The notes under the pieces: model-generated
The model's input: the letters and a program-made list of their open reading frames with translations, nothing else
What the model was told of the DNA's origin: nothing
Database searches by the model: none
Part shown: positions 1-26,455 of the stretch, piece after piece
How the letters are laid out: each line of letters starts with the position of its first letter
How positions within the stretch are numbered: the first letter of the stretch is position 1
Assembly (NCBI GenBank): GCA_045654005.1
Contig: JAZOMN010000067.1
Coordinates: 1 to 38,394 of the forward strand
Direction: 5' to 3'
Source: Clostridia bacterium
GTDB taxonomy: Bacteria; Bacillota; Clostridia; UMGS1840; HGM11507
DNA: 38,394 nucleotides
Translations under genes and position numbers: made by a program

Positions 1-15
1 TGATTATAATAAATT

Positions 16-51
16 AAAAACGGACAATCGGTAACCCGATTGAGCGTTTTT
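16..51. terminator. bidirectional hairpin terminator after the cytidylate-kinase-like gene
   Basis: Stem caatcgg (25-31) / ccgattg (36-42) with loop taac, extended by cg/cg. Flanked by an A5 run (16-20) and a T-run (47-51). Confidence 0.6.
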
Positions 52-52
52 A

Positions 53-652
53 TTAATTAAGTTCCATTCTTTCTTTTATGTAACTTTCTAAAAAGTCAAT
101 AGTTTTTTTAAGTCCTAACACACTTGAGTTAATACAAAGATGATAGTTTCTTGAGTCGCCCCATTTACCTTTACAATGGTTGTTGTGATAGGATTTTCTT
201 AAAAAGTCTTTTTTCTTTCTTAGGGCTTCGGCATCTTTTTCGTTTAAGTTATATATTTCCATAATTCTTTTAACTTTTTCTTCGGTGTTACCCAAAACGA
301 AAATTGTTACCATATTTTTATTATGTGAAAGATGATGTTCTGCGCATCTTCCAACGATAACAAACGATTCGCCGTTATCGGCTTTTCCTTGTAAGAATTT
401 AAACTGCATTCTTACTAAATGTTCAGCCATAGATGTCGAGTGACCGTTATGCCTTCTTGTAAATAAAGAAAATCTTGGTTTTTCATCAAATTTGTGAAAT
501 TCGTGTTCGTCAATCCCGAATTCTTCTGCCATACTGTCAAGTAAATTATGATCAAAAAGCGGAATATTAAATCTTTTTGAAAGTTCCTCCGCAATAGCAT
601 GCCCCGCGCTTCCGAATTCTCTGCCTATTGAAATTATAAGTTGTTTACTCAT
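53..652 (-). CDS. cytidylate kinase-like family protein (P-loop NTPase)
   Basis: 199-aa ORF. The N-terminal GREFGSAGH nucleotide-binding-like motif and overall length fit the clostridial cytidylate-kinase-like family. AAGGAG RBS (minus strand) at 661-666, 8 nt from the ATG. Hairpin terminator just downstream (21-46). Confidence 0.75.
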   Translation of the reverse strand: MSKQLIISIGREFGSAGHAIAEELSKRFNIPLFDHNLLDSMAEEFGIDEHEFHKFDEKPRFSLFTRRHNGHSTSMAEHLVRMQFKFLQGKADNGESFVIVGRCAEHHLSHNKNMVTIFVLGNTEEKVKRIMEIYNLNEKDAEALRKKKDFLRKSYHNNHCKGKWGDSRNYHLCINSSVLGLKKTIDFLESYIKERMELN

Positions 653-667
653 AAATTAAACTCCTTT

Positions 668-2020
668 TTATATATATCTTATACAAATAAATACTGTTGA
701 TATAACAAGTACAATTACTGTAGCAGGTACTGAGTATTTGCAGAATTTACCCCAGCCAATCAAGTGACCTTCCTGCGCTGCAGCCGATATGCCGACAACA
801 TTTGCAGAAGCACCGATTGGTGTTGCACATCCACCGATATCTGTACCCATAGAAAGTGACCATGCAAGTGTATCTAAATGAATACCCGATGATATTGAAA
901 GTGTGCGTATAACAGGAATCATTGTTGCTGCAAACGGTATATTATCAACAAATGCACTTGCTATACCTGAAACCCATATAATAATTATAATAAGAAGATA
1001 TTTGCTGTTTCCGCTCAAAACGGCTATATATTCTGCTATAAGTTCCAATATGTGAGTCTGCTCTAAACCACCTACTACTATAAATAATCCTATGAAGAAA
1101 AGTAAAGTTTTATAATCAACTTTCTTTAAAATAATTTTTGTATTCTTACCCGCAAAAACTAATGTGGCAATAGTAACAAAAACACCGATTGATGAAACTG
1201 TAAGTCCTGTCATAGAATGTGTTACAAGCATAACAACTGCTGTTAAGAATATAATTACGCTTATTGTGAAATCTTTTTTGTTCTTTATAGCATCTTTTGC
1301 GTTTAATTTTTCAGAATTTGTATCATTTGCCTTATTTTTCATATCTTTTTTAAACACAAGGCAGAAATATAAAATAATAAAAGGTACGCATATCAATACG
1401 ATAAGCCCTGTATTTACAATAAAATCAAAGAAACTGTAACCCAAAGATGTTCCGATAATAATATTCGGAGGGTCACCACACATTGTTGCACTTCCGCCAA
1501 GATTTGCGCAGAATATTTCTGCAATAATAAGCGGAGCAGGTTTGAATTTTAATATTTTAGCAAGTTCCAGAGTTGCTGATGCTAAGAATAAAATAACTGT
1601 GATACTGTCAATAAACATTGCAAGAACAGTTGACATTATCATAAATGTTATAAATAAAGGTAAGGTTTTGTATTTTACGATTTTAGCAAGGCCTAAACAC
1701 AGCCAACGGAAAAATCCTGATTCTCCCATTCCCTCTACCATAACCATCATACCGGCAATAAACACTATTGTTTCCCAGTTTATTCCCGATGTTACTCCGG
1801 CACTTTCACCATTTGAGTACCAGAAATGAGAAGTTAAAAAACTTTTTAAATTAAGTGTGTCCCATATTGCAGTTAAACTTCCCATACATATTCCGAATAC
1901 CAGAACCAGCATAAGTAAACCGCAGGCTAATGTAACAATATGCCTTTCAATCTTATCTGTAACAATGGCAAGGAACATGAAAATAAAGATTAAAACTGCA
2001 AAAATTTGTGCAATTTCCAT
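668..2020 (-). CDS. ArsB/NhaD (CitMHS/SLC13-like) family ion permease
   Basis: 450-aa polytopic membrane ORF with two hydrophobic halves split by a charged loop (KKDMKNKANDTNSEK). The ANLGGSATMCGDPPN motif is typical of ArsB/NhaD-type anion permeases. Confidence 0.75.
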   Translation of the reverse strand: MEIAQIFAVLIFIFMFLAIVTDKIERHIVTLACGLLMLVLVFGICMGSLTAIWDTLNLKSFLTSHFWYSNGESAGVTSGINWETIVFIAGMMVMVEGMGESGFFRWLCLGLAKIVKYKTLPLFITFMIMSTVLAMFIDSITVILFLASATLELAKILKFKPAPLIIAEIFCANLGGSATMCGDPPNIIIGTSLGYSFFDFIVNTGLIVLICVPFIILYFCLVFKKDMKNKANDTNSEKLNAKDAIKNKKDFTISVIIFLTAVVMLVTHSMTGLTVSSIGVFVTIATLVFAGKNTKIILKKVDYKTLLFFIGLFIVVGGLEQTHILELIAEYIAVLSGNSKYLLIIIIIWVSGIASAFVDNIPFAATMIPVIRTLSISSGIHLDTLAWSLSMGTDIGGCATPIGASANVVGISAAAQEGHLIGWGKFCKYSVPATVIVLVISTVFICIRYI

Positions 2021-2137: not shown

Positions 2138-2166
2138 TTGTAAGATTAAAAAAAGTATTATATAAT
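2138..2166 (+). promoter_or_regulatory. candidate sigma-A promoter (TTGTAA-17-TATAAT) firing into the GCGATAT array
   Basis: -35 ttgtaa at 2138-2143, 17-nt spacer, -10 tataat at 2161-2166. The predicted TSS near 2173 coincides with the first hairpin of the array. Confidence 0.45.
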
Positions 2167-2170
2167 GATT

Positions 2171-2372
2171 TCAAGCCGAGCTTGAAATCAGCGATATAAA
2201 TTCCTGACGGAATTTGCGATATGTACTTCGTACGCGATATATCTTTGATGCGATATGTTGCCTTGCGGTAACGAGAAAGGAATTTATATTATATCGCAAC
2301 GGAGTAAAACAGAGTTATATCGCATTTGAGTATGATGAAAATATATCGCACGAGCGTGAGCGAGTATATCAC
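2171..2372. repeat. array of GCGATAT heptamers (4 forward, 4 reverse) interleaved with short unique palindromes
   Basis: Forward GCGATAT at 2191, 2216, 2234 and 2250. Reverse ATATCGC at 2291, 2317 and 2343, and ATATCAC at 2366. Forward spacers are palindromes: aaattcc-tgac-ggaattt, gtac-ttc-gtac, atc-ttt-gat, gttgcc-ttgc-ggtaac. The array is preceded by tcaagc-cga-gcttga. Confidence 0.9.
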
Positions 2373-2451
2373 TAAAATTAGCACCATCTGAATTGTTTAT
2401 TGGTTTTATAATAAAATATAATAAATTAAAAAAGAAAAAGGAGATTTAATT

Positions 2452-3556: not shown

Positions 3557-4501
3557 ATGGCAAAAACTTCTACAACTGTTGTCATGAAGAAGAAAAGCTT
3601 TGCAAGAAGAATTCTTGACGATTGGCAGCTTATATTATTGGCTTTGCCCGGTTTCATTTTCTACATTATCTTCAGATACGGACCAATGTACGGGGTGTCA
3701 ATTGCATTTAAAGATTACGGTATATTCTTAGGTATCTTCGGAAGCCCATGGGAAGATCCATGGTACTATAACTTCCAGATGTTCTTCTCGTCAGGGGACT
3801 TCTGGCCGCTACTTAGAAATACTTTTGCACTTGGATGTTACACTCTTTTATTCTCATTCCCTATGCCGATTATATTTGCATTGTTCTTAAATGAGATAAA
3901 GAATATTAAATTTAAAAAACTTACACAAACTATTACATATTTACCATCACTATTATCAATGGTTGTTGTATGTTCAATGGCTATCGATATGTTATCTCCA
4001 AGTTCAGGTATTATTAACAAACTTATTGTTGCTCTTGGCGGAGAATCGATTTACTTTATGATTAAACCTGAATGGTTCAGAACCATTTATATTTTAATAA
4101 GTATATGGCACGGATTTGGTTCAGGTGCGGTTATCTACATTGCTGCACTCGGCGGTGTTGACCCTCAACTTTACGAAGCAGCAAGAATTGACGGTTGTTC
4201 AAGAATGAAACAAATCTGGCATGTATCAATTCCTTCTATTTTACCAACTGTTGTTCTTATGTTTATCATGAGATCAGGTGCTATTATCAACATTGGTTAT
4301 GAACAGGTATTGTTACTATACAATGCTGCTACTTATGAAGTTGCCGATATATTCGGAACATTCGTTTACAGAAAAGGTATTTTGGAAACTAACTACAGTT
4401 ATTCAACTGCAGTAAGTTTATTCCAATCAATAGTTGCGTTATTCTTCGTTATTTGTTCTAACACACTTAGCAAGAAAGTTAACGAAACAAGTTTATGGTA
4501 A
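3557..4501 (+). CDS. carbohydrate ABC transporter permease (LplB/MalF-like, CUT1)
   Basis: 314-aa six-TM ORF with an EAA-type loop (YEAARIDGCSRMKQIWHVSIPSI). GGGGGA RBS at 3544-3549. Confidence 0.85.
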   Translation: MAKTSTTVVMKKKSFARRILDDWQLILLALPGFIFYIIFRYGPMYGVSIAFKDYGIFLGIFGSPWEDPWYYNFQMFFSSGDFWPLLRNTFALGCYTLLFSFPMPIIFALFLNEIKNIKFKKLTQTITYLPSLLSMVVVCSMAIDMLSPSSGIINKLIVALGGESIYFMIKPEWFRTIYILISIWHGFGSGAVIYIAALGGVDPQLYEAARIDGCSRMKQIWHVSIPSILPTVVLMFIMRSGAIINIGYEQVLLLYNAATYEVADIFGTFVYRKGILETNYSYSTAVSLFQSIVALFFVICSNTLSKKVNETSLW

Positions 4502-9504: not shown

Positions 9505-11730
9505 CTAACTTTGTTCCAAAAGATTTATAGTCATTTCGGCATTTGATAATGCTTTTTTTGAAAGTTCTTCTTTATAGGTAACAAGATTTTGCTTTATTTC
9601 GTCCTTATTATTTAAAATTTTCTCTATCATTTCTCTTATATATATAGAGTCGATATTTTCTGCTTCGGTTAACATATCCTGTTTGATATAGTCTAAAAAT
9701 CCCTTTATTTTAGGGTCATAGATAATACCGATAAGAGGAACACACATTGTAGTCGCATATATCAAAGAGTGAAGACGCATACCTATAACAAGTTCGCATT
9801 TTGAGATTATTCCCATAAGTTTTTCGGCTGATTGTTCAGTTTTTATAATATAACCTTTATGGGACATTCTCTCTAAAATATTTTGTGAAATTGCCAAATC
9901 TTCACTTGGTCGCATTGTAATAAATATTGTTTCTATATTATACTTTTCGTAAACATAGTCACAGATTTTAGCAATTTTTGCTTCAAAGAGTTTGTCATTT
10001 TTATTCCATCCTCTTACTGATACTGCCATATATTTTCCGTCTTCTTTAATATTGTGTTCTTCCATAAGTTTTATAGTTTCTTCATCACAACACGCATTAA
10101 GAGTTATTGCAGGGTCGGCAGTAACAAACACTTCTTCGTTATTAACCCCTATTCTTCTTAATTCTTTTTCCGATAGTTCGTCTCTTAAAGTTATAAGGTC
10201 TGCTTTTTTTGTAACAAGAGCAGATATTTTTTCATTCTTTTCTTTAAAAGGACCTATACCGTTTGCATAAACTACAAGTTTAAGTTTAAGTTTTTTTGCA
10301 AGATTCATAAGATACAGGTAATAATAAAGGGAATGACTGCTTGTTGCATCGTGAATCAAAGTTCCTCCGCCGTTTAAAAACAGTTTTGATTTTTTAAGAC
10401 TTTTATATATTGTTATTGGGTTAAATCTGTTTACGGCATCAACTTTAAATAGCCTTGTAGTTTGTTTAGGATTTTTTGACAAGGTAAGAATTCTTACATC
10501 TTCTTTATACTTTCTTAAATTATCTATAATGGCAGTAAGAAGTGCATCGTCACCACTGTTATTAAATCCGTAATATCCTGACATAACAATGTCATATTTT
10601 TTCTTATCATAAAAGTCTTTTAAAATTCTTTCGTATATTTTTATATGAGATTTCGCAAGATTATCATTTGAGAACTTGGTTGTTGCCTTACTATATAAGT
10701 TTTCCCCAAATTTTAACCTAAGAACTTTGCTTTCTGCAAGTTGTAACACTTTGCTGGCAAAATCCACACTATTTTCATTTTCAAATAAAAATCCGTTTTC
10801 TCCGCTTTCTATAAGGTCGGAAATACCCCCGACATCTGAACTTATTGTCGGTTTTTTAAGTTTCGCACCCTCTAAAAGTACATAAGGAAAACTTTCGCTT
10901 AGCGAGGTAAGTGTATTTATATCAATAGCGTTGATAAAATCATAAATGTTATTAAGAAAGCCTACAAAATGAACTCTGTCTGAAATTCCGTATTCTTCTG
11001 CCTGTTTTTTAAGGTCTAAAAGAAGCGGACCTTCACCTGCGAGTAAAAATCTTAAATTGCTGTTTTTTTCCAGTGCATATTTAGCACCCTCTATAAAGAT
11101 TTTATGGCCTTTAACCAAATCAAATCTGCCTATAATTCCCACATAAGTTGTGTTTTCTTCGTAAGGAATATTATATTTTTCTAAAAATTCTTCTTTTGAT
11201 ATAAACGAATGAGGTTTTGTAAAGTCCATACCGTTATAAACGGTAAAGATTTTATTTGGTTTAAAGCCTCTTTCAATAAGCATATTCTTAAAGTTATTTG
11301 ATACACCGATATAGTAGTCCATATCTTTTAAGGCTATCTGATTTAAAAGAGTAAACACATATTTTTTATAAAAACCTTCAGTAAAATCAAGTTTATAGTC
11401 ACTGTGAACGGTTGAAACTACAGGGATTTTAATTTTCCTTTTAAGTAAAGAGGATACGAAATTAGCCCTTGCACCGTGAATGTGAAGAACATCAAAACCC
11501 TCTTTTTCAATTATATCGGCAATTTTTGAAATAATAGATAAATCGCCCCTGTTTTTTTGCTCGATTAAAACAGTATCAATATCTTTCTTTAATATTTCCT
11601 GATAGAAAACGCCCGGTGTAAGACAGATGATTTTCACATCTGCATATTTTTTTAATGCATCTAAAAGTGCAAAAACATGAGTTTTTGCACCTCCACTGTC
11701 TCCACCGCTTATCATGTGAAGAATTTTCAT
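9505..11730 (-). CDS. csaB: fusion protein: N-terminal GT4 glycosyltransferase, C-terminal polysaccharide pyruvyl transferase (CsaB-type)
   Basis: 741-aa ORF. Residues about 1-370 look like a GT4 (MKILHMISGGDSGGAKTH start, EGFPYVLLEGAKLKKP-type E-x7-E region). Residues about 375-741 start with the CsaB-like GYYGFNNSGDDALL motif. The start overlaps the upstream gene stop by 4 nt. Confidence 0.8.
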   Translation of the reverse strand: MKILHMISGGDSGGAKTHVFALLDALKKYADVKIICLTPGVFYQEILKKDIDTVLIEQKNRGDLSIISKIADIIEKEGFDVLHIHGARANFVSSLLKRKIKIPVVSTVHSDYKLDFTEGFYKKYVFTLLNQIALKDMDYYIGVSNNFKNMLIERGFKPNKIFTVYNGMDFTKPHSFISKEEFLEKYNIPYEENTTYVGIIGRFDLVKGHKIFIEGAKYALEKNSNLRFLLAGEGPLLLDLKKQAEEYGISDRVHFVGFLNNIYDFINAIDINTLTSLSESFPYVLLEGAKLKKPTISSDVGGISDLIESGENGFLFENENSVDFASKVLQLAESKVLRLKFGENLYSKATTKFSNDNLAKSHIKIYERILKDFYDKKKYDIVMSGYYGFNNSGDDALLTAIIDNLRKYKEDVRILTLSKNPKQTTRLFKVDAVNRFNPITIYKSLKKSKLFLNGGGTLIHDATSSHSLYYYLYLMNLAKKLKLKLVVYANGIGPFKEKNEKISALVTKKADLITLRDELSEKELRRIGVNNEEVFVTADPAITLNACCDEETIKLMEEHNIKEDGKYMAVSVRGWNKNDKLFEAKIAKICDYVYEKYNIETIFITMRPSEDLAISQNILERMSHKGYIIKTEQSAEKLMGIISKCELVIGMRLHSLIYATTMCVPLIGIIYDPKIKGFLDYIKQDMLTEAENIDSIYIREMIEKILNNKDEIKQNLVTYKEELSKKALSNAEMTINLLEQS

Positions 11731-13262
11731 TTGTTTTTAACCTTTCTTGATATATTAAGCGTTGCTAAAATAATACCTATCATAATAAAGAACATAAACA
11801 TTGTTCTTGGATAGAACCATATATATTCAACACCGCTTACAAAAATAATTCCCGTAAATGATGCTAAAGATGCGCATACATAATTTTTCTGGTCGCAAGA
11901 CAGAGCGTGTCTTATTTTAACAGTTATAAGTCTTTTTAAGGTAATTACCCAGAAAACCATAAGTGATACAAAGCCTAATAGCCCCATTTCAACCAAGACT
12001 TCCATAAATAGCATATGTGAATGCGGTGCTAAAACTGCACTTGCGTGTGCAAAACTCGGGTAGAGCAGGGAATAGGCTTCAGGACCAAGTCCTATACCTG
12101 TTATAAAATTATTTTTAAGCATTTTTAATGCGCCTTCCCAGATAAGAATTCTGTACTGATTTGAAGTATCTTTCATACTTCCTATAGTAAGAATCCTGTT
12201 AAGGATTGATTCAGGCAAAAACGGTATTGCTAAAAATCCTAAAAGTGCAATAAGCGGAATAAGTTTATAGTTATAAAACGCTATAAATACTGCTACAGAT
12301 ATTGCAAAAGATACCCAGCAAGAACGCGAATAGGTATATAAAAGTGCCATGAAAGGAACAAGTAGAAGGAAAAGCCAGATAAACTTTTTCTTTTTGTCTT
12401 TCTGATTTAAGGCAAATGCTGCCATAAAAGGCATAAACATAACAAGATATTCTGCATAGTTGTTAGGATTTTCAAATGTTGAATATGCACGCCCTGGCAT
12501 TCCCTGATTTGCGCTAAGGTCGGTAAGCCTTACATCAATTTCAACACCCATAATACCCTGATATATACAGTAAAGTGATGTAAGTATAAGGCCGATTGAA
12601 ATAATTCCAACAAATTTATTTAAGTCTTCCTCTTTTTTGATGCTTCCCCAGATAACAAACATAAATATAAATGAGGTAAAAAAGAACATAAATATTCTTA
12701 TACTGTCGCCCACTGCATTTGATATAATGACAGCAACAAGGGATGCTATCATAAATATAATCATTATAAAGTCAAATTTTGCAATTCTTAAAGAAAAGTT
12801 TTTTCCTGACATAAGTGTAACAAAATAAAGGAATAAAACAAACATGGCAATAAGGAGCCCATACAAGTTATTCCATTTATGCCCCGGAACACAAACCATA
12901 ATTACAATTAAAACTGCAAGAATATTCTGAAATCTTAAATATGAATTTCTATTTAAAAAATTATAAATTGAGTTATTTATACTGCCTCTATTAATCTTTC
13001 TTAAACTTTTATATACATCAGATGCAAAAGAAATTACTGAAATTATAATCTTATCAATGAATTTAAAAACAGATGATTTTTCGCACATATACTGAATTTT
13101 ATCTTCATGATAGAAGAATTTATAAATAACGCTCCCATAAAATATATCACGAAATTTATTTTTAAAAGAAGAAAGGAAAGTATAAATAAAACTGTATTTA
13201 AATGTACCAAGTAGTGATATAAAGGCATAAAAAAGTTTGCCTATAATACTTTCTTTAAACAT
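11727..13262 (-). CDS. O-antigen ligase / Wzy-like polymerase family membrane protein
   Basis: 511-aa ORF with about 12 TM segments and a periplasmic-loop region (YSRSCWVSFAISV...) typical of the Wzy_C/O-antigen ligase family. Translationally coupled to the GT4-CsaB gene. Confidence 0.7.
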   Translation of the reverse strand: MFKESIIGKLFYAFISLLGTFKYSFIYTFLSSFKNKFRDIFYGSVIYKFFYHEDKIQYMCEKSSVFKFIDKIIISVISFASDVYKSLRKINRGSINNSIYNFLNRNSYLRFQNILAVLIVIMVCVPGHKWNNLYGLLIAMFVLFLYFVTLMSGKNFSLRIAKFDFIMIIFMIASLVAVIISNAVGDSIRIFMFFFTSFIFMFVIWGSIKKEEDLNKFVGIISIGLILTSLYCIYQGIMGVEIDVRLTDLSANQGMPGRAYSTFENPNNYAEYLVMFMPFMAAFALNQKDKKKKFIWLFLLLVPFMALLYTYSRSCWVSFAISVAVFIAFYNYKLIPLIALLGFLAIPFLPESILNRILTIGSMKDTSNQYRILIWEGALKMLKNNFITGIGLGPEAYSLLYPSFAHASAVLAPHSHMLFMEVLVEMGLLGFVSLMVFWVITLKRLITVKIRHALSCDQKNYVCASLASFTGIIFVSGVEYIWFYPRTMFMFFIMIGIILATLNISRKVKNK

Positions 13263-13270
13263 AATATCTC

Positions 13271-13756
13271 CTATTTAAAATTTATATCGTAAACTCTTAG
13301 ATATAACTTTGCTTCTCCTGCGAGTAAAACAAAAGTATGGCCAACATAATATTTTGATGCGCCTACAATCATACCGTGGTCAAATTTAGTTGCATTTACT
13401 TCACTTGTTATTATCATTGATTTGTAGTCAGGTTTAGACGATTTAACCCATTTGCCCTCTGCGTCAGTTCCGTAAGATACTGCATCAAAAAGTTCTACAT
13501 TTGTGATAACACCAAGGCTGACATTTTTTGCTTCGTCCATAAGTTTGTCACCAACATCTACTTTTTCTGAGACGAAATCGGATACTTCTTCGATATAATA
13601 TTTAACTTCGCAAATACCCTGAGCATCTCCTCCGCTTTGTGTCGGTGCTAAAAATTTAAATCCTAAAATTCCGATAACCGCAACAATAACAACGATTATC
13701 GCAAGGCCAATAATGTTGATTTTTCCGAATAATTTTCCTTTTTGGTCAATAAGCAT
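13271..13756 (-). CDS. DUF4330-like single-pass membrane protein
   Basis: 161-aa ORF. The N-terminal KGKLFGKINIIGLAIIVVIVAVIGILGF anchor followed by a soluble beta-rich domain matches the pattern of the DUF4330 family, which commonly sits beside csaB-type clusters. Confidence 0.65.
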   Translation of the reverse strand: MLIDQKGKLFGKINIIGLAIIVVIVAVIGILGFKFLAPTQSGGDAQGICEVKYYIEEVSDFVSEKVDVGDKLMDEAKNVSLGVITNVELFDAVSYGTDAEGKWVKSSKPDYKSMIITSEVNATKFDHGMIVGASKYYVGHTFVLLAGEAKLYLRVYDINFK

Positions 13757-13758
13757 AA

Positions 13759-15270
13759 TTAATTACCTCTCTTTAAAAAATTGGTTATTTCTTTTGTTCT
13801 TAAAACGAGAAGCGAAAGAGCATAAACGATTACACCGCATATTCCCGATGCTCCAAGTTTTAAAATTAAATTTATTTTACCTTCCCCAAAGCCGATATTT
13901 TTGATAAAATTAACCGCAAGTGCCATTATTGCACACGAAACAAGCGATTTTATAAATGCTATAATAAGAGGCTTTATGGAAAGTTTTTTTGTTTTTACTT
14001 TAAACAGAATAAGAATATTAAGTCCGCCAATTATTGATGCGATAGAGTAGGCGACTGCAATTCCCGAAACCCCCATATATTTTACTAAGATTATACTAAG
14101 TAAAATATTTGAAACCATTATTACAACGCCGTTGTAAGCGCTGGTTTTAGTGTTCTTCACAGCATAGAACGCACGGTCAGTAATTTCTTTAAAACCTATC
14201 CCCAAAAATGCAAAAGAATACATTTTAAAGACATCTGAGCCAAGTATTAAAAATTCTTCTGTAAATTTTCCGTATCCGTAAATCAAGTCCATTATTTCAT
14301 AAGAGAAAATATAAAACGCAAAGGACAAAGGAACAAGAAGAAGAATCATGCCGTTTAGTGTAGTTACAAGATTGTTCTCAAAAGATTTATTATCATCTTT
14401 TGCCGCATCTAAAGAAAGTTTGGGATAAACTACCGAAGCGATTGCAAGAACAATGGTCATAACAATCTGAATACCTAAATTTTGAGCATTATTTAAGACT
14501 ATGTATCTTTCAGAGTCGTATGAAAATGCAATAGAGTTGTTTGTAAGCATATTTATCTGGTACGCACAAACCCCTACAATAACAGGTGCAACAACTTTGA
14601 AGATTTTTAACATATCTTCATTTTTAAAGTCAAAACTTATCCTGAATTTAAACCCTGTCTTCTTAAGTGCAGGAACTAAAAAGGCTGCCTGTATAAAAAA
14701 CCCGAAAAGTGTTGAAAAAGTAAGCCCGTATGCTCCGTAATTATCCGATATTGTAATAAGATATAAAATGCTTACAATACTGCTTGGCAGACTTACAGCC
14801 GCCGCAAGATAAAATTTGCCGTTAGCCTGCAGAAGACTGCTGAAAATATAATACATCGAGATAAATATAACCGATATAATTAAAACCCTTATTGCAAAAT
14901 TTCCAAAACTTAAATCTCCGCTTTGGGATATTCCCGATATAATGGGTGCAAGAAACTGCCCCAAAATTATAAGTAAAAGCGAAACGAGAGCAGTAAACGA
15001 AATTGTGTTGTTTATAAAATAGTTTGCTCGGTTTATAGTGTGATTTTCTCTTAAATCAGTATAAATAGGTATAACCGATGTTGTAAGAGTTGTGCCTATT
15101 ATGGTTGTTATTATATTGCTTAAAGAAAGTGCGTAAGAATAAGCACTGCTTAAATCGTTTACACCTATTTTCGAGGTTATAAGGCTGTTGGCAATAAGCG
15201 CCAGACCTCTCGATAACACATTGATTATAAGAACAATAGTTGCCGTTTTGGCAAGTTTGTTTTCGTTCAT
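13759..15270 (-). CDS. MurJ/MviN (CsaA-like) MOP-superfamily flippase
   Basis: 503-aa ORF with about 14 TM segments and a MOP/MviN-like N-terminus. Sits in an operon with csaB-type and Wzy-like genes. Confidence 0.75.
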   Translation of the reverse strand: MNENKLAKTATIVLIINVLSRGLALIANSLITSKIGVNDLSSAYSYALSLSNIITTIIGTTLTTSVIPIYTDLRENHTINRANYFINNTISFTALVSLLLIILGQFLAPIISGISQSGDLSFGNFAIRVLIISVIFISMYYIFSSLLQANGKFYLAAAVSLPSSIVSILYLITISDNYGAYGLTFSTLFGFFIQAAFLVPALKKTGFKFRISFDFKNEDMLKIFKVVAPVIVGVCAYQINMLTNNSIAFSYDSERYIVLNNAQNLGIQIVMTIVLAIASVVYPKLSLDAAKDDNKSFENNLVTTLNGMILLLVPLSFAFYIFSYEIMDLIYGYGKFTEEFLILGSDVFKMYSFAFLGIGFKEITDRAFYAVKNTKTSAYNGVVIMVSNILLSIILVKYMGVSGIAVAYSIASIIGGLNILILFKVKTKKLSIKPLIIAFIKSLVSCAIMALAVNFIKNIGFGEGKINLILKLGASGICGVIVYALSLLVLRTKEITNFLKRGN

Positions 15271-15321
15271 AATTTTTTCCTTTTTATTTACTTTAATTAT
15301 ATATTATATAATAATCCATAT

Positions 15322-17577
15322 TTAGTCAAGCACAATGATAGGAGCAAATTCAAAATATACTTCATCATCTGCAATTGTGAATTTTGCATATTTTAATTTT
15401 TCCAAAGTACCTTCAGGGTCTTCATAGGAAAACTCAGGAATATCGCATACTGTTATATATCTTATTCCTTCGCTTACCGTATAGGTATTATCATCTGCGT
15501 ATGTGATAATAAATATGTTTTTATCTTTAAGATTTTCTTTTAAAATTGAAGTTAAAATTTTAAGTTCTTCTTTGTCTTTGTGTTTTGAAATGTCAAGAGG
15601 CATATTTATAAACACGTTTTTCTGGCTTACCCCTTTTTCAAATACGTTAAGGAGCCAGTCCCATTGTTCTCCTTTAGTAGAAACAATGCTTCCTTTGGAG
15701 TTATCAAGTTTTAAAAATAAAGAATGTTCGGTGTCTTCTCTTCCGTAATTTGAAACTCTTATAACAGGCGAGGTAATCTCTTCGGGAATAACTTTAAATG
15801 CCGAAAAATCATATCCGTTTGCCAATATGTTTCTCTTTTTTGTTATATAGTTTGAAAATAAAGTATCACCGTGATTATTTATGCCGAATGTCGCATAGGT
15901 AAATCCCTCTTTATCGGTTGTTCTTTCAAATATATCTTTTTCTTTTTGTTCTGACGGTTCTTTTCCAACAGGTATAGTAAGGGAAAGGCCATTGTATGTT
16001 GCCGTAATATCTCCCTCGGTAAGTTTTGTTAAAATAAGAGAATCGTCTTTAAAATATCCCTTAGTGCCCTCAAAAGAAAATTCTATATTTTCGCTTGAAA
16101 GGTAAGTGGAATACCCCTCGCTGTCAGCAAGATAAAAAGTTGCACTCTGCGGTTTATCGGTAATTTCAAAAGAAGAAACTGAACATTTGATTTTTTCAGG
16201 TTTTTCGTAAACCGTAATGGTTTTACCTTTTTTTACACCTTTATATGATGCGTACAAAGTAACTTTCCCTGATTCTTCAGGATAGAAAATGTTACCTGTA
16301 AACTTTCCTTTTTTATCTGACGAGAACTTAACATTTTTTAAATCGACAGAATAATGGTTTCCGTACTCGTCGTATGCTTTGTCAATATATATTTCAATTG
16401 GTTCTCCTTTAAATGCTTTATCGGAGGATAAGGAAATTTCCATTCCCAAAAAGTCTGAATTTTTGCGCTCGGCAGTAATTCCTACCGCGTTTATAACTTT
16501 TCTGAACGAGGATTGAAGATTGATATTTTTAATTTCTTCTCCATCCATTGACGCGACCATTGTGGTAGAACCGCCGCCGTCAAAACTCATTGCATTTTCG
16601 TACCCTAAATCTTTTAGGAAAGTTGCAATTTCTTTAAAGGTCATTCCACGGCTATATGTCTGCCTTCCGTCAACAGTAAATAAAATAAGTTTTTTGCCTG
16701 TCTTATCTGTTCCTATTGCAGTCATAGGTGCCAAAGAATCAGATAATGTAAAATCGGCTATTTCGCCGTCTTTTAAAAGAATAGTTCCTCCGCCTACGGC
16801 TTCTTTTATATTTTCTATGTCAGGGGATACTGAAAACGAAAGTTCAACTTCGTCACCCACATAAAAGTTTTCTGATAAGAACAAAGAGTGCCTTAAAGAA
16901 TTATGAAGAACATAACCGTTTTTGGGAATTTCAACCCCTTCTTTATTGGAAAGAACCTGGGTAACGACACCGTCTTCAACGACAACCTCATATCCGTCAT
17001 TCATAGACCCCGGAGTTTTTTCCCCGAAAGAAGAGTCATAAAGTTTTAAATACATAGGGTCAGCATTTTTGTTATAAAATAATATTTTACTTGAATCGTT
17101 AGTTCTTTTTGATGTTACCATTATATCAAAAGTAAAATGGGAAAAGTTAACAACCGCCTCATTATCTAAAGTAAAAGTTGCATACGAAGGGTCGTTTGAC
17201 GGAGTGGTAACAAGAACACCGTCTTTAATCATCATTCCCTCGGAAGATGCAGTAGATGTGTAAGTGGTAAAAAAGTCCGCATTTATAGCAGCCACAACAT
17301 CTTTATCCTGTTTCGCAAAATCTAAAACGGTTGATTTTACTTTAGGATCAGCATCCGATAAGATTTTAAGACCCACACCCTCTTCGTTTAAGTCAACTGT
17401 AATATAGTTAATGTTAAGCCAGCCTGAAGAGGTAAGTTTTTTAATATTTGTTCGTAAAATGCCCTTTGATATATATGAATTAACAGTATCTTCATAAACG
17501 GTTTTGGAAAATCCGACAACTGAAAGGGTAAGATTTAAAATGAGTGTTAAAATAAGTATAAATGATGTCTTTTTCAT
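15322..17577 (-). CDS. secreted phosphodiester glycosidase (NAGPA/DUF2233) domain protein with a long C-terminal extension
   Basis: 751-aa ORF with a signal peptide (MKKTSFILILTLILNLTLSVVGFS). The N-terminal half carries the characteristic AMSFDGGGSTTMVA motif. I do not recognise the C-terminal roughly 370 aa (beta-rich). Confidence 0.7.
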   Translation of the reverse strand: MKKTSFILILTLILNLTLSVVGFSKTVYEDTVNSYISKGILRTNIKKLTSSGWLNINYITVDLNEEGVGLKILSDADPKVKSTVLDFAKQDKDVVAAINADFFTTYTSTASSEGMMIKDGVLVTTPSNDPSYATFTLDNEAVVNFSHFTFDIMVTSKRTNDSSKILFYNKNADPMYLKLYDSSFGEKTPGSMNDGYEVVVEDGVVTQVLSNKEGVEIPKNGYVLHNSLRHSLFLSENFYVGDEVELSFSVSPDIENIKEAVGGGTILLKDGEIADFTLSDSLAPMTAIGTDKTGKKLILFTVDGRQTYSRGMTFKEIATFLKDLGYENAMSFDGGGSTTMVASMDGEEIKNINLQSSFRKVINAVGITAERKNSDFLGMEISLSSDKAFKGEPIEIYIDKAYDEYGNHYSVDLKNVKFSSDKKGKFTGNIFYPEESGKVTLYASYKGVKKGKTITVYEKPEKIKCSVSSFEITDKPQSATFYLADSEGYSTYLSSENIEFSFEGTKGYFKDDSLILTKLTEGDITATYNGLSLTIPVGKEPSEQKEKDIFERTTDKEGFTYATFGINNHGDTLFSNYITKKRNILANGYDFSAFKVIPEEITSPVIRVSNYGREDTEHSLFLKLDNSKGSIVSTKGEQWDWLLNVFEKGVSQKNVFINMPLDISKHKDKEELKILTSILKENLKDKNIFIITYADDNTYTVSEGIRYITVCDIPEFSYEDPEGTLEKLKYAKFTIADDEVYFEFAPIIVLD

Positions 17578-17596
17578 AAAATGTCACCTCGGATAA

Positions 17597-17625
17597 ATTA
17601 TAACATAAAAAATCAGTTTTGTGAA
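17597..17625 (-). promoter_or_regulatory. candidate promoter of the minus-strand cell-wall glycan operon
   Basis: Read on the minus strand: TTCACA, 17 nt, TGtTATAAT (extended -10), followed by a GAGGTGA RBS. Confidence 0.5.
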
Positions 17626-17631
17626 TACTAC

Positions 17632-17660
17632 TTGAAAAATATTTATGAATTTGTTAAAAT
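17632..17660 (+). promoter_or_regulatory. candidate promoter of the divergent GT4 gene
   Basis: TTGAAA (17632-17637), 17 nt, TGtTAAAAT (17652-17660). Confidence 0.5.
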
Positions 17661-17687
17661 ATATTTAATATGGAAAGGAATGGTAGA

Positions 17688-18764
17688 ATGAAAGTTTTAT
17701 ATCTTATAAATCACGCCGGAAAAGCGGGAACTGAAAAATATGTATATAATTTAGTTAAAGCATATAAAGATAAAAAATGCGAATGTTATTTTGCTTATAA
17801 TGAAGAAGGGCTTTTGCTTAATCAGATGAAAGAGGAAAATGTTCCTTGCTTTCAGTTTGAAATGAAGCATCCTTTTGATATTTCTGCCGCAAAAAAATTT
17901 GCAGGTTACTTAAAAGAAAATGAGATTGATGTTGTTCACGCTCAATATCCAAGAGAGAATTATATCGCTCTTTTATCAAAACTTTTTTATAAAAAAACTA
18001 AAGTTGTTTTCACATCTCATCTTACTATAAAAACTAACCTTTTATGGAAGATAACAAATAAATTTATGACTCCTTTTAACCATAAGATAATTTCAGTATG
18101 CAATCACGGAAAAGAACTTCTTATAGGAAACGGCGTTAAGAAAGATAAAATTGAAGTTATTTTTAATGCAATGACTATTGATAAAGAAGAAACAAATTCT
18201 ACAATAAGAGAAGAACTTTCACTTAAAGATGAATTTTTAATAGTAACTTTGGCAAGATACCATTTTGCAAAAGGTCTTCCATTCTTGGTTGATTCTGTGA
18301 AAAAACTAAAAGAGATTGCAACCCGTCCGTTTAAAGTTTTAATAGTGGGCGATGGGGAACTGTGGGACGAAATAACCGCAAAAATTAAAAATGAGGGGCT
18401 TTCGGATACTATTTTGCAGTTAGGTTTCAGAAAAGATACTGATAATATTTTATCAGGATGCGACCTTTTTGTTAACTCTGCAAGTTGTTTAGAAGCATTG
18501 TCTTTTGCTATGCTTGAAGCATTATCCAAAAAACTTCCTTTGGTTGCTACAAATGTGGGCGGAAATTCAGATATAGTAAACCCTGATACCGACTGCGGAA
18601 TAATTGTTGATTATCCTGATTGTGATGAGATGGCAAACGCAATAAATACTTTAATGAACGATAAAGAAATGTATGAAAGAATGTCACAAAATGCAATAAA
18701 AGCGATAGAGGGAAGATTTAACTACGACAAGATGCTGGACAAAACGTTTGATATGTATATTTGA
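17688..18764 (+). CDS. GT4-family glycosyltransferase
   Basis: The ORF track starts at 17670, but the ATG at 17688 (MKVLYLINHAGKAGTEKY) fits the usual GT4 N-terminus. C-terminal EALSFAMLEALSKKLPLVATNVGGNSDIV motif. Confidence 0.85.
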   Translation: MKVLYLINHAGKAGTEKYVYNLVKAYKDKKCECYFAYNEEGLLLNQMKEENVPCFQFEMKHPFDISAAKKFAGYLKENEIDVVHAQYPRENYIALLSKLFYKKTKVVFTSHLTIKTNLLWKITNKFMTPFNHKIISVCNHGKELLIGNGVKKDKIEVIFNAMTIDKEETNSTIREELSLKDEFLIVTLARYHFAKGLPFLVDSVKKLKEIATRPFKVLIVGDGELWDEITAKIKNEGLSDTILQLGFRKDTDNILSGCDLFVNSASCLEALSFAMLEALSKKLPLVATNVGGNSDIVNPDTDCGIIVDYPDCDEMANAINTLMNDKEMYERMSQNAIKAIEGRFNYDKMLDKTFDMYI

Positions 18765-18891
18765 CCTTAAGGTCAAATGTGATATGTTGTCATACGACAA
18801 CTCGATATATTTACGGCGTAAATTCGATATGTTTTCGGGCAATTCGTGAACTGCCCCTATAAAACGCGATATGTTTGTTCTTTGAACAAAC
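18748..18891 (+). repeat. second YGATAT heptamer array with perfect palindromic spacers (3' end and 3' UTR of the GT4 gene)
   Basis: TTGATAT 18748, GTGATAT 18779, TCGATAT 18802, TCGATAT 18824, GCGATAT 18866. Palindromes: atttgacc-ttaa-ggtcaaat, gttgtc-atac-gacaac, atttac-ggc-gtaaat, gtttt..gggca..tgccc..aaaac, gtttgttc-ttt-gaacaaac. Confidence 0.9.
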
Positions 18892-18898
18892 GTTAAGG

Positions 18899-18933
18899 AC
18901 GCAAAAGATACCATTCGGTCTTTTGCGTTTTTG
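18899..18933 (+). terminator. terminator of the GT4 gene transcript
   Basis: 10-bp stem acgcaaaaga (18899-18908) / tcttttgcgt (18919-18928) followed by a T-run. Confidence 0.7.
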
Positions 18934-18944
18934 TATGATTGCTC

Positions 18945-18982
18945 AAAATGGACGCAAAAGGGACAGACCCCATTGCGTCCAT
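18945..18982 (-). terminator. terminator of the minus-strand three-gene envelope operon
   Basis: 10-bp stem atggacgcaa (18948-18957) / ttgcgtccat (18973-18982), loop aagggacagacccca. An A4 run on the plus strand gives a T-run on the minus strand. Confidence 0.6.
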
Positions 18983-19018
18983 ATTTATAGTTTTAACATA
19001 ATGTTAAATATTATATTT

Positions 19019-19912
19019 TCAGTTTATCATAAGATTTTTCTTTTTAGATATATTAATATCAATGTCCGGTGTTCCTATATAGATGTCTTTATTTCCATCC
19101 AATGTATTATACTTTACAATGGTATAATCGTCATATTTATATACTCTGCTTCCGCCGTCTTTATATAGAATGTCGGGAATAATGCCTTTTTCAACATCCC
19201 TGTCGCACTTTTCAATTATATCCTCCATTGTAATTAAATTATCTCTGAGTGCCATCGAAAGAGGTGTTAATCCTGTACCTAAATTAATATATACCTGGTC
19301 TAAACCGTAACTATATACCATGTACTCGTAACTTAGCATACTTGTAGCGTACTCTTTTTCGGGAAGTTTTATTTTCCCGAAAAGTGCAGTAAGTGACGGC
19401 GTTTTTGAAGGCTCTACCACTATTTCTCCAAATTCTTTTATAACTTTAAAACTATAGATTACCATATTTCTTATAGGATAAATCGGTTTTTGTGGATAAC
19501 TTACTCTTATCTCAAGATAGTATGTTCCTGGTGCATCAGGTAAAATTTTAAAAGAATCTTTTTTAAAATCAATGCTTTGAGAAAAAGGTTTTCTTTGTAA
19601 GGTAATCTCTTCTATTTTCCCGGAAAGATTTTTAATATGGAATAAAACATCGTCTGTCCCATTTATGACGATAGTGTTTTCCTTTGAATATATACGTTCC
19701 TCTGCGCTTGGATAACTTGATTGTGAACCATTCCAGTTAACAGGCAGGGTTAACCCCTTATAACTTACATTTTCATTTTCATAAATAACAAGGTCGGGTG
19801 GATTTTTTATGTGCTCATATCCGGGATTTAAAAAAATGTAAGATACTCCCGCAAGAAGTGTAATAAGTAAAACAGCAAATAATATAATTAAAAATTTTCT
19901 TCTTTTAAGCAT
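19019..19912 (-). CDS. hypothetical N-terminally anchored extracytoplasmic protein
   Basis: 297-aa ORF with a single N-terminal TM (FLIILFAVLLITLLAGVSYIF). I recognise no family. Lies 14 nt downstream of the lipoprotein gene on the same strand. Confidence 0.6.
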   Translation of the reverse strand: MLKRRKFLIILFAVLLITLLAGVSYIFLNPGYEHIKNPPDLVIYENENVSYKGLTLPVNWNGSQSSYPSAEERIYSKENTIVINGTDDVLFHIKNLSGKIEEITLQRKPFSQSIDFKKDSFKILPDAPGTYYLEIRVSYPQKPIYPIRNMVIYSFKVIKEFGEIVVEPSKTPSLTALFGKIKLPEKEYATSMLSYEYMVYSYGLDQVYINLGTGLTPLSMALRDNLITMEDIIEKCDRDVEKGIIPDILYKDGGSRVYKYDDYTIVKYNTLDGNKDIYIGTPDIDINISKKKNLMIN

Positions 19913-26196: not shown

Positions 26197-26322
26197 AGTT
26201 ATATTTGCCTTACGGCAAGTTATGAGTTCAGATTGCTTCGCCAGTTATGAATTGACTTCGTCAATGTTTGTTTTTTTGAGGGCAAATATATCATAACTGC
26301 AAACGAAGTTTGCATCATAACT
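26197..26322. repeat. AGTTATGA / TCATAACT motif array with palindromic spacers, between two terminators downstream of the tRNA cluster
   Basis: AGTTAT 26197, AGTTATGA 26218 and 26243, TCATAACT 26291 and 26315. Palindromes: ttgcc-ttac-ggcaa, attgac-ttc-gtcaat, gcaaac-gaa-gtttgc. Outer complementarity atttgcc (26203-26209) / ggcaaat (26281-26287). Confidence 0.85.
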
Positions 26323-26395: not shown

Positions 26396-26455
26396 CAATG
26401 AAATTTGCCTGCAGGTAGCGAGATATTTCATTAAACCCACATCCATATATTACAT

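Follow-up and report, generated by a model that had tools for sequence, protein, structure and literature searches.

Gut-1 (RF01706) is a structured motif that was reported only from human gut metagenomes, was rated as a real RNA ('RNA = Y') and as not cis-regulatory, and was left without a stated function (Weinberg et al., 2010, Genome Biol 11:R31, PMC2864571). Its consensus consists of a heptamer (GUGAAAU) that alternates with three hairpins, with a heptamer at both ends. The seed also holds members with GUGAUAU or GCGAUAU that continue into a center, GGCGAAUAUAAUAUCAC, and four AUAUCAC units, and some seed members are found directly after a tRNA gene and a terminator (PMC2864571). Neither Rfam nor PMC2864571 gives mobility, phage association or a full architecture for Gut-1, and our literature search found nothing on Gut-1 after 2010, nor on GCGATAT/GUGAAAU arrays. 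In this work we analyzed a stretch of 38,394 nucleotides from a Clostridia bacterium (contig JAZOMN010000067.1, positions 1 to 38,394; the window hereafter), in which an array of heptamers and hairpins, termed locus 2, lies between the stop codon of a glycosyltransferase (GT) gene and its terminator. The heptamer-hairpin grammar already exists as the Rfam Gut-1 motif. A complete element of the same grammar, locus 1, is located at 2168-2398 (+ strand).

The repetitive extragenic palindromic (REP) sequences, bacterial interspersed mosaic elements (BIMEs) and REP doublets forming hairpins (REPINs), together with the REP-associated tyrosine transposases (RAYTs) of Enterobacteria and Pseudomonas, resemble these arrays in many respects: short hairpin units with a conserved flanking oligonucleotide, clusters in alternating orientation, doublet and solo forms, an intergenic location mostly at gene 3' ends and between convergent genes, transcription with the upstream gene, and many strain-variable copies. 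REP palindromes are conserved in sequence within each genome, whereas here only the heptamer and the pairing are conserved, and the hairpins are unrelated both between loci 1 and 2 and within arrays. The units described here are also tandem (up to 13) with one orientation per half, they belong to Clostridia and to phages of these bacteria, and 764 kb of flanks, searched with approximate queries, showed no RAYT-like gene. A literature search on RAYT/REPIN returned nothing for Clostridia. The pneumococcal BOX elements (boxA-boxB(n)-boxC) are likewise modular, intergenic, transcribed and stably structured, with fixed end modules, a variable internal number and no transposase of their own. Their modules are sequence-conserved and 45-59 bp long, whereas the units here measure 16-25 bp with free hairpin sequence, and no sequence relation is expected. 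Integron attC sites also form arrays of units, and the likeness would extend to recognition by shape and a short conserved 7-nt core rather than by palindrome sequence; they differ in that R'' and R' are mutually complementary at the stem base, whereas the heptamers are direct repeats outside the stems, with far shorter units, no cassettes and no integrase nearby. CRISPR arrays share the alternation of short conserved repeats with variable intervals. CRISPR identity was rejected because the repeat is 7 nt (not 23-55 nt) and unstructured, the variable part is palindromic, no cas genes are present, and no CRISPR family was found by Rfam at gathering score across the window, where tRNAs were the only matches; since the intervals are self-complementary, they cannot be guides.

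Composition of the array and its assignment to a family

The locus 2 array proper (all parts on the + strand) consists of an opening hairpin, four heptamers and four further hairpins between the GT stop codon and the terminator. The opening hairpin P0, ATTTGACCTT/AAGGTCAAAT (18759-18778), is a perfect 20-nt palindrome that contains the TGA stop codon (18762-18764) and directly precedes the first heptamer, H1 (GTGATAT, 18779-18785), which aligns with heptamer 1 of the custom model described below. It is followed by hairpin P1, GTTGTC-atac-GACAAC (18786-18801), heptamer H2, TCGATAT (18802-18808), hairpin P2, ATTTACG-g-CGTAAAT (18809-18823), and heptamer H3, TCGATAT (18824-18830). The next hairpin, P3 (18831-18865), has outer GTTTT/AAAAC and inner GGGCA/TGCCC arms and is unusually long at 35 nt; the custom covariance model aligned it as a 28-nt loop insertion. 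Heptamer H4, GCGATAT (18866-18872), and hairpin P4, GTTTGTTC-ttt-GAACAAAC (18873-18891), complete the array. H2, H3 and H4 were read from the sequence and the custom model, P1 and P2 from the inverted repeat and the custom model, and P4 from the inverted repeat. The four heptamers, spanning 18779-18872, alternate with five perfect hairpins. No ATATCRC is found 3' of 18891, so locus 2 has no center and no inverted second half; therefore it is a solo left half of about 130 nt.

The first-pass annotation had counted five heptamers at this place, beginning with TTGATAT in the last codons (F-D-M) of the GT gene at 18748-18754 (+ strand), 4 nt away from P0. All five are present on the + strand, and all five intervals were confirmed as perfect inverted repeats, but the membership of TTGATAT 18748 in the array did not stand. 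The corresponding codons read TTTGATA in the relatives L001 and L002 and TTAATAT in sister strains, where no array follows them; they read TCGATAT in contig L270. Because this coding stretch is conserved in relatives, TTGATAT 18748 is probably a coincidental or ancestral coding sequence outside the array proper.

The grammar was tested as [GT][CT]GA[AT]AT, a spacer with ends pairing over at least 3 bp, and the next heptamer, against the whole window shuffled 1000 times with its dinucleotides preserved. Of these shuffles, 0.4% contained a chain of three or more heptamer-hairpin units and none (0/1000) a chain of four or more. The real window contains two 4-unit chains, at 2191-2257 and 18779-18872 (+ strand), and one 3-unit chain at 2297-2355 (- strand). 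The earlier view that heptamer-flanked palindromes of this kind exceed chance was borne out by these counts. The locus 2 region also folds far better than shuffles on both strands (z = -5.9 and -6.8).

A custom covariance model (R1) was built from 24 metagenomic left halves with the window excluded. It matched locus 2 at 18753-18887 (+ strand, 29.7 bits, E=1.9e-7) and locus 1 at 2165-2280 (+ strand, 89.8 bits, E=9e-25) and 2280-2398 (- strand, 25.4 bits), whereas the next best match in the window scored 5.4 bits or less. Judged from 29.7 bits against a 5-bit background, and against 18-42 bits for other genuine half arrays, locus 2 is assigned to the same family as locus 1, as a solo left half. 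It had been suggested that locus 2 did not arise as a duplicate of locus 1; this holds, for their hairpin sequences are unrelated and yet an independent covariance model matches both.

Broadly understood, the family corresponds to the orphan Rfam motif Gut-1, and locus 2 is a related member below the threshold of that model. The Gut-1 gathering score is 50 bits. At a relaxed threshold, locus 1 reached 29.2 bits and an element on the phage-like contig L048 reached 32.4 bits, both below 50; a copy in the related genome L002 matched at 51.3 bits, above the gathering score, and this copy stands right after a three-tRNA cluster and a strong terminator with RTGAAAT/ATTTCAY as the heptamer. Locus 2 falls short of the gathering score, and it also lacks the complete doublet with center and inverted half; it does carry at least three hairpins flanked by RYGAWAU heptamers on one strand, with P0 abutting the first heptamer as in the family. 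Compensatory substitutions were found in 24 GCGATAT-type relatives (locus 2 has no orthologues). The likeness to Gut-1 lies in a conserved heptamer (GUGAAAU; in the seed also GUGAUAU and GCGAUAU) alternating with at least three covarying hairpins, in seed members with the same inverted half and center, which is the exact architecture of locus 1, and in the origin from gut Clostridia-type metagenomes. The differences are that the Rfam model spans only three left-half hairpins, and that in locus 2 the heptamers are mixed, the hairpins are longer and irregular, and the inverted half is missing.

Gut-1 has been an orphan Rfam motif since 2010, listed as 'human gut only' and without function. What is new here is that a larger modular element extends beyond the part described by the Rfam model, that the heptamer has several interchangeable versions, and that the element, a dispersed repeat that varies between strains, belongs to Oscillospiraceae/Ruminococcaceae genomes of the rumen and the gut and is also located between structural genes in the phages of these hosts. 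Experiments can make use of strains that differ in having a copy at one particular gene, of the contrast between solo and complete forms, and of phage copies near ribosome-binding sites. For annotation it matters that metagenomic assemblies break at the arrays, which can also pass for small RNA genes or CRISPR-like arrays.

Architecture and dispersal of the family

Relatives were collected by pattern searches. A search of viral contigs for three GCGATAT gave more than 120 matches, nearly all of them coding tandem repeats, and one real element, on L048 (phage-like, ~60% G+C). This element is co-linear with locus 1: an identical 32-mer (GCGATATAAATTCCTGACGGAATTTGCGATAT) is followed by hairpins that differ, and a search with the exact locus 1 32-mer returned L048 only. 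In metagenome contigs, the pattern CGATAT-N(9-20)-GCGATAT-N(18-40)-ATATNATATCGC gave at least 120 stretches, nearly all of them real elements; the family counts below rest on the matches listed. Four other contigs that fit the search pattern (L140, L150, L176 and L177) hold a different kind of repeat, a dense GCGATAT/ATATCGC mosaic with 3-9 nt between heptamers, without hairpins and within longer repeated units.

A complete element begins with P0 (7-14 bp), which abuts the first heptamer in nearly all members, followed by H1, P1 (xxATTCC/GGAATxx or TTGCC/GGCAA), H2-P2, H3-P3 and H4-P4. After P4 come G(A/T)GA, a copy of the P1 3' arm plus ATATC, and four 'ATATCGC + hairpin' units. The family consensus of the heptamer is N-Y-G-A-W-A-T, and the hairpin sequence is free while pairing is kept. 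The center is the perfect complement of GATAT together with the P1 5' arm, and this pairing covaries between copies. Across 24 diverse left halves, compensatory changes were found in 16/16 tested pairs, and 92.9% of cells were paired; 0/500 shuffles reached this value, and slid controls gave 16-52%.

The number of units varies from 1 to 13 across arrays. Four plus four heptamers is the mode (43/86 complete distinct doublets), the others having 1-5 per side. Solo left halves ending after P4 recur, at L134 5007-5077 and at L158 3786-3855, the latter directly upstream of a ribosome-binding site. Two copies on L138 have P1, P4, the center and P5 in common with unrelated P2 and P3. Replacement of spacers and gain or loss of units, which the first-pass annotation had proposed to look for, are supported by these copies and by the range of unit numbers. 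Minimum free energy folds pair direct with inverted heptamers in 82/86 doublets, giving a ladder of junctions, and the flanking bases are most or second most complementary in the nested order, which is weak evidence.

Whole elements can repeat in tandem: two copies on L154 lie 254 nt apart, and four Gut-1 seed members on BAAZ01000130.1 start 240 nt apart (PMC2864571, supplementary file 95). L154 also contains 13 consecutive GCGATAT + hairpin units (1397-1664), many of the GCTTCGC type, adjoining a compact core hairpin, GATATGAATTCC-ggca-GGAATTCATATC; the left-half units of canonical elements look inserted into the loop of such a core hairpin.

Elements occur in Oscillospiraceae chromosomes and in phage structural operons, on host contigs of 35-60% G+C. 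Chromosomal flanking genes encode GroEL, RumA, ATP-binding cassette (ABC) and major facilitator superfamily (MFS) transporters, an extracytoplasmic function (ECF) sigma factor and dockerin proteins. The L048 copies are located between the large terminase and portal genes and between phrog_13908 (function unknown) and the major head gene, and L134 carries three copies at comparable places. The terminase-portal site of these two related phages is occupied by arrays of different types, a TCGATAT doublet with reversed halves in L048 (1408-1606) and a GCGATAT solo half in L134 (4982-5095). Among INPHARED phages no similar DNA was found, and the nearest capsid relatives have no arrays. One near-identical subfamily of ~255 bp is found in about 20 different flanks, often at contig ends, with the conserved ends (A)AATTGGAATTT... 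and ...AAACTGAAATT.

A 115-aa 23S_rRNA_IVP (four-helix-bundle) gene begins 10-20 nt past the last inverted heptamer in 7-9 loci (L149 289-636, L156, L158, L184, L213, L227, L229 and L253), with a RumA methyltransferase gene upstream of some of them (L158, L213). A diversity-generating retroelement or retron, an idea prompted by these genes, was rejected, as there is no reverse transcriptase nearby.

In sister strains whose GT gene is 94% identical, no array follows this gene: the stop codon is followed by 50 nt and a shared bidirectional terminator. These strains also have no element between CitMHS and creatininase, model R1 found nothing in about 100 kb of sister-strain loci, and orthologous loci at 64-82% identity (L001-L003) have no array. 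It had been considered that the region might be a strain-specific insertion without other genomic copies; strain-specific it is, but other copies are abundant. When filled and empty sites were compared, the insertion boundaries were ambiguous, with possible TTAA/AATT or TTTATAAT duplications. Palindrome-associated transposable elements (PATEs, derived from IS200/IS605) lack a terminal inverted repeat (TIR) and a target site duplication (TSD), have subterminal hairpins and insert 3' of a fixed tetra- or pentanucleotide; in the arrays, no TIR or TSD was seen outside the ends, and AATT/TTAA is a possible target. We infer mobility only from the distribution, because the 764 kb of flanks yielded no transposase, integrase or other recurrent enzyme gene, and no clear TIR or TSD was seen.

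For orientation counts, elements were read with P0 first. Among the matches listed, 60 loci had an upstream gene on the same strand and 23 had one on the opposite strand; the setting was convergent in 20, tandem in 19 and divergent in 5 of 44 loci; and a + strand terminator followed the element in 18 loci and preceded it in 3. In several copies, 0-8 nt separate the end of the element from a Shine-Dalgarno (SD) sequence. On the terminator and upstream-gene counts, the common layout is gene, element, terminator, as at locus 2, which places the element inside the transcript. Most elements are thus found either between stop codon and terminator or shortly before a ribosome-binding site, and P0 faces the upstream gene. 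The prediction that the array is transcribed as a 3' untranslated region (UTR) agrees with its location upstream of the terminator and with the layout usual in the family.

The two halves are polar. The left half has TGC, TTC or TGAC loops (TNC), and the right half, on the same strand, has GAA, GCA or AAA loops (GNA), often as GCGAAGC; the mirror-image loops indicate that each half is the same unit inverted. On the top strand, G.T and A.C pairs number 4 versus 12 in the left half and 34 versus 7 in the right half (counts that are not independent), so that in either half the strand that reads ATATCGC has more G.T than A.C. L048 also has a doublet with its halves in the opposite arrangement. An origin-bubble idea, with the wobble-tolerant strand pointing away from the center, was ruled out by this reversed doublet. 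A resemblance of RUGAU to the K-turn or box C-D motif was ruled out on inspection, as there is no partner GA strand.

Readings of the array

By analogy with REP and BOX elements, we favor, with modest confidence, the reading that locus 2 is a non-autonomous repeat, co-transcribed with the GT gene, whose action, if it has any, would be that of a structured block in the 3' UTR. A complete element consists of the opening hairpin, four direct heptamer-hairpin units, the center and four inverted units, of which locus 2 is the left half. In the GT mRNA, the array is predicted to fold into five consecutive hairpins with single-stranded YGAUAU stretches between them. The unit of heptamer plus hairpin would be what a putative mobilizing or copying machinery requires, and any effect on the host would occur at the RNA level, where a nuclease-resistant block may shape the stability or processing of the mRNA 3' end. 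Dedicated regulation of the GT gene is less favored than such a general structured-block effect.

Several results weigh against this reading. The ~255-bp subfamily has no terminal inverted repeats and no duplication outside its conserved ends. No IS200/IS605-like TnpA open reading frame (ORF) was found in the 764 kb of flanks, in a weak search with approximate query sequences, and clustering of 2068 flank ORFs revealed no recurrent enzyme gene, the largest cluster being a translated repeat artefact. Locus 2 itself (18600-19100) has no Gut-1 match at E<=10, and it ends in GTTA after P4 instead of the family-typical GWGA tail. Loop polarity and the G.T/A.C asymmetry fit better with a strand-specific DNA process, or with independent units, than with one sense RNA. 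Copies right after a strong terminator (among them two further arrays in the window, described below, and those in L002) are expected to be poorly transcribed. The RNA-level effect is proposed by analogy.

Two alternatives are unlikely but deserve to be taken seriously, and we give them similar weight. In the first, which follows the first-pass annotation, the array would be a structured RNA module in which a protein or nuclease reads the single-stranded YGAUAU between hairpins, either as a sponge or platform like the CsrA-binding RsmZ, or as endonuclease entry sites, for example of RNase Y, that define stable mRNA ends. RNase Y prefers a G followed by A/U near a downstream hairpin. The orientation bias relative to genes and terminators, the copies that lead directly into SD sequences in phage late operons or stand ahead of 23S_rRNA_IVP genes, and the covariation of the hairpins would fit such a module, as would the 'RNA = Y' rating of Gut-1 (Weinberg et al., 2010, PMC2864571). 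One sequence-specific factor would not fit with heptamers that differ within one genome (GCGATAT, GTTATGA, ATGAAAT), and a single sense RNA leaves the mirror-image second half unexplained. Furthermore, some copies are found behind strong terminators without room for a promoter, and presence or absence between strains with 94% identical neighbors argues against a needed regulator. The first-pass proposal of one factor reading the heptamer genome-wide is doubtful on the same ground, since the arrays of the window use different heptamers.

The second of these alternatives, also a minority view, is an element of folded single-stranded DNA, in which the hairpin + ATATCGC unit would be recognized by an enzyme of the HUH/Y1 type or by another structure-specific enzyme, in parallel with REP/REPIN processing by RAYTs and with IS200/IS605 ends processed by TnpA. 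In that case doublets would be mobile, and a solo half like locus 2 would be an immobile remnant. This is consistent with dispersed, near-identical copies without inverted terminal repeats or target duplication outside the ends, with a doublet/singlet dichotomy like that of REPIN versus REP, and with the strict polarity of the units, whose triloops on the ATATCGC strand (GAA/GCA/AAA) are closed by C-G, often as GCGAAGC. GCGAAGC is a hyperstable DNA mini-hairpin, and YG/ATAT is similar to CTTG/ATA, the site at which Rep proteins of the phiX174/pC194 family nick DNA. The excess of G.T over A.C on the ATATCGC strand in both halves points in the same direction, although these counts are not independent observations. 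Against it stand the empty, if weak, TnpA search of the flanks and the variation of hairpin sequences within one array, unlike in REP families. Nor does it predict the orientation relative to terminators, unless indirectly via replication direction.

We regard as improbable, though of interest if true, that the heptamer-hairpin unit is a miniature cassette and that arrays grow, shrink and swap units by a site-specific, structure-guided process. The heptamer would then probably act like a duplicated target or crossover site on folded single-stranded DNA. Such exchange would explain why heptamers are identical within an element and differ between elements (GCGATAT, GTTATGA, ATGAAAT), why the two L138 copies have common flanks and different internal hairpins, and how the 13-unit array of L154 came about. 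As a variant of this idea, the four direct and four inverted heptamers might zip into a ladder of four-way junctions, in RNA or single-stranded DNA, that has a function of its own. Unit exchange or a functional ladder would constitute a new type of structure-guided repeat system; the former would be an undescribed array-building system with a logic inverse to that of CRISPR and a scale far below that of integrons.

Double-stranded DNA sites (iterons, operators or centromere-like sites) read at the heptamer, with incidental hairpins, are very unlikely and were already disfavored. The position of locus 1 in a divergent promoter region would suit them, as would the viral contig L135, in which GTGATATA occurs in 6 direct and 5 inverted copies without hairpins. 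The heptamers are, however, irregularly spaced (16-42 bp) and differ from array to array within one genome; every spacer stays palindromic through compensatory changes, a property that binding to double-stranded DNA does not require; and divergent promoter regions are the rarest location among the matches listed (5/44 loci). The L135 array itself (4004-4361; IMGVR_UViG_3300010354_015816) is iteron-like, with ~14-15-bp spacing, and places the same heptamer in another grammar. The first heptamer (18748) is explained by coding sequence, which would suit chance clustering or AT-rich, low-complexity sequence, but this reading is counted as already refuted by 0/1000 shuffles with at least four units, the independent model match (E=1.9e-7) and the fold z-score of -5.9.

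Gene neighborhood and other arrays in the window

Locus 1 is a complete doublet (Gut-1 29.2 bits, custom model 89.8 bits). Its order is P0 (2168-2188), four GCGATAT with hairpins (2191-2272), the center GGAATTTATATT, and a right half of three ATATCGC and one ATATCAC up to 2372, with a tail to ~2398; the right-half hairpins are decayed. It forms an insertion of ~270 bp, oriented in sense, that immediately follows the -10 box of the creatininase promoter. A third array of the same architecture, with the heptamer (A)GTTATGA/TCATAAC, is present at 26197-26321 (+ strand) after a tRNA cluster and terminator. It reached only 15.9 bits with Rfam Gut-1, and it is the positional counterpart of the bona fide Gut-1 copy in L002 (8812-8900). 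A minimal copy, AATGAAAT - hairpin-like spacer - ATTTCAT, was recognized by eye only at 26397-26431 (+ strand) after another terminator. An intrinsic terminator immediately precedes each of these two arrays, and both lie downstream of the tRNA cluster. The heptamer is uniform within an element and complementary between its halves, but it is not uniform within a genome, because the window also has the GTTATGA/TCATAAC array and the AATGAAAT/ATTTCAT copy.

The GT gene (GT4/Glycos_transf_1 by Pfam; 17670/17688-18764, + strand) encodes the 358-aa product P0130. It sits in an exopolysaccharide (EPS) block of a 741-aa glycosyltransferase/PS_pyruv_trans gene, Wzy_C, DUF4330, MurJ, NAGPA and GT, in a window of 33% G+C; the named relatives of the GT cluster are Ruminococcaceae/Oscillospiraceae metagenome-assembled genomes. 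The intrinsic terminator of the GT transcript, ACGCAAAAGA-loop-TCTTTTGCGT plus TTTTT (18899-18933, + strand), has its hairpin arms at 18899-18928, with the T-run after them. A second, ancestral hairpin at 18945-18985 is a bidirectional terminator common to the sister strains and forms the right-hand limit of the stretch in which the window departs from the empty allele. GGACGCAAAAG / CTTTTGCGT is common to the GT terminator (18897-18933) and this hairpin. The arms of the ancestral bidirectional terminator are therefore present twice, with the upstream copy serving as the GT terminator; in the downstream copy the 3' arm is degraded relative to L259. Locus 2 was also considered as a cluster of intrinsic terminators and rejected, as G+C-rich hairpins with a U-run are lacking: a T-run is found only at 18899-18933, and the five array hairpins lead into heptamers.

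Gene order around the arrays also differs between strains. In the sister strain L267, the EPS block (741-aa gene ... NAGPA, GT) is directly followed by Cytidylate_kin2-CitMHS-creatininase. In the window (1-2020, 9505-18985), Cytidylate_kin2-CitMHS-creatininase is found 16 kb upstream, and other genes come after the EPS block. Loci 1 and 2 both lie within about 200 nt of gene-order junctions relative to L267. The closest GT allele (KTFDIYI), on L270 (1385-1449), has TTCGATAT in its last codons, followed by the hairpin AAATCGC-ataaa-GCGATTT, ATATA and the contig end; this sequence may be a different array at the same site.

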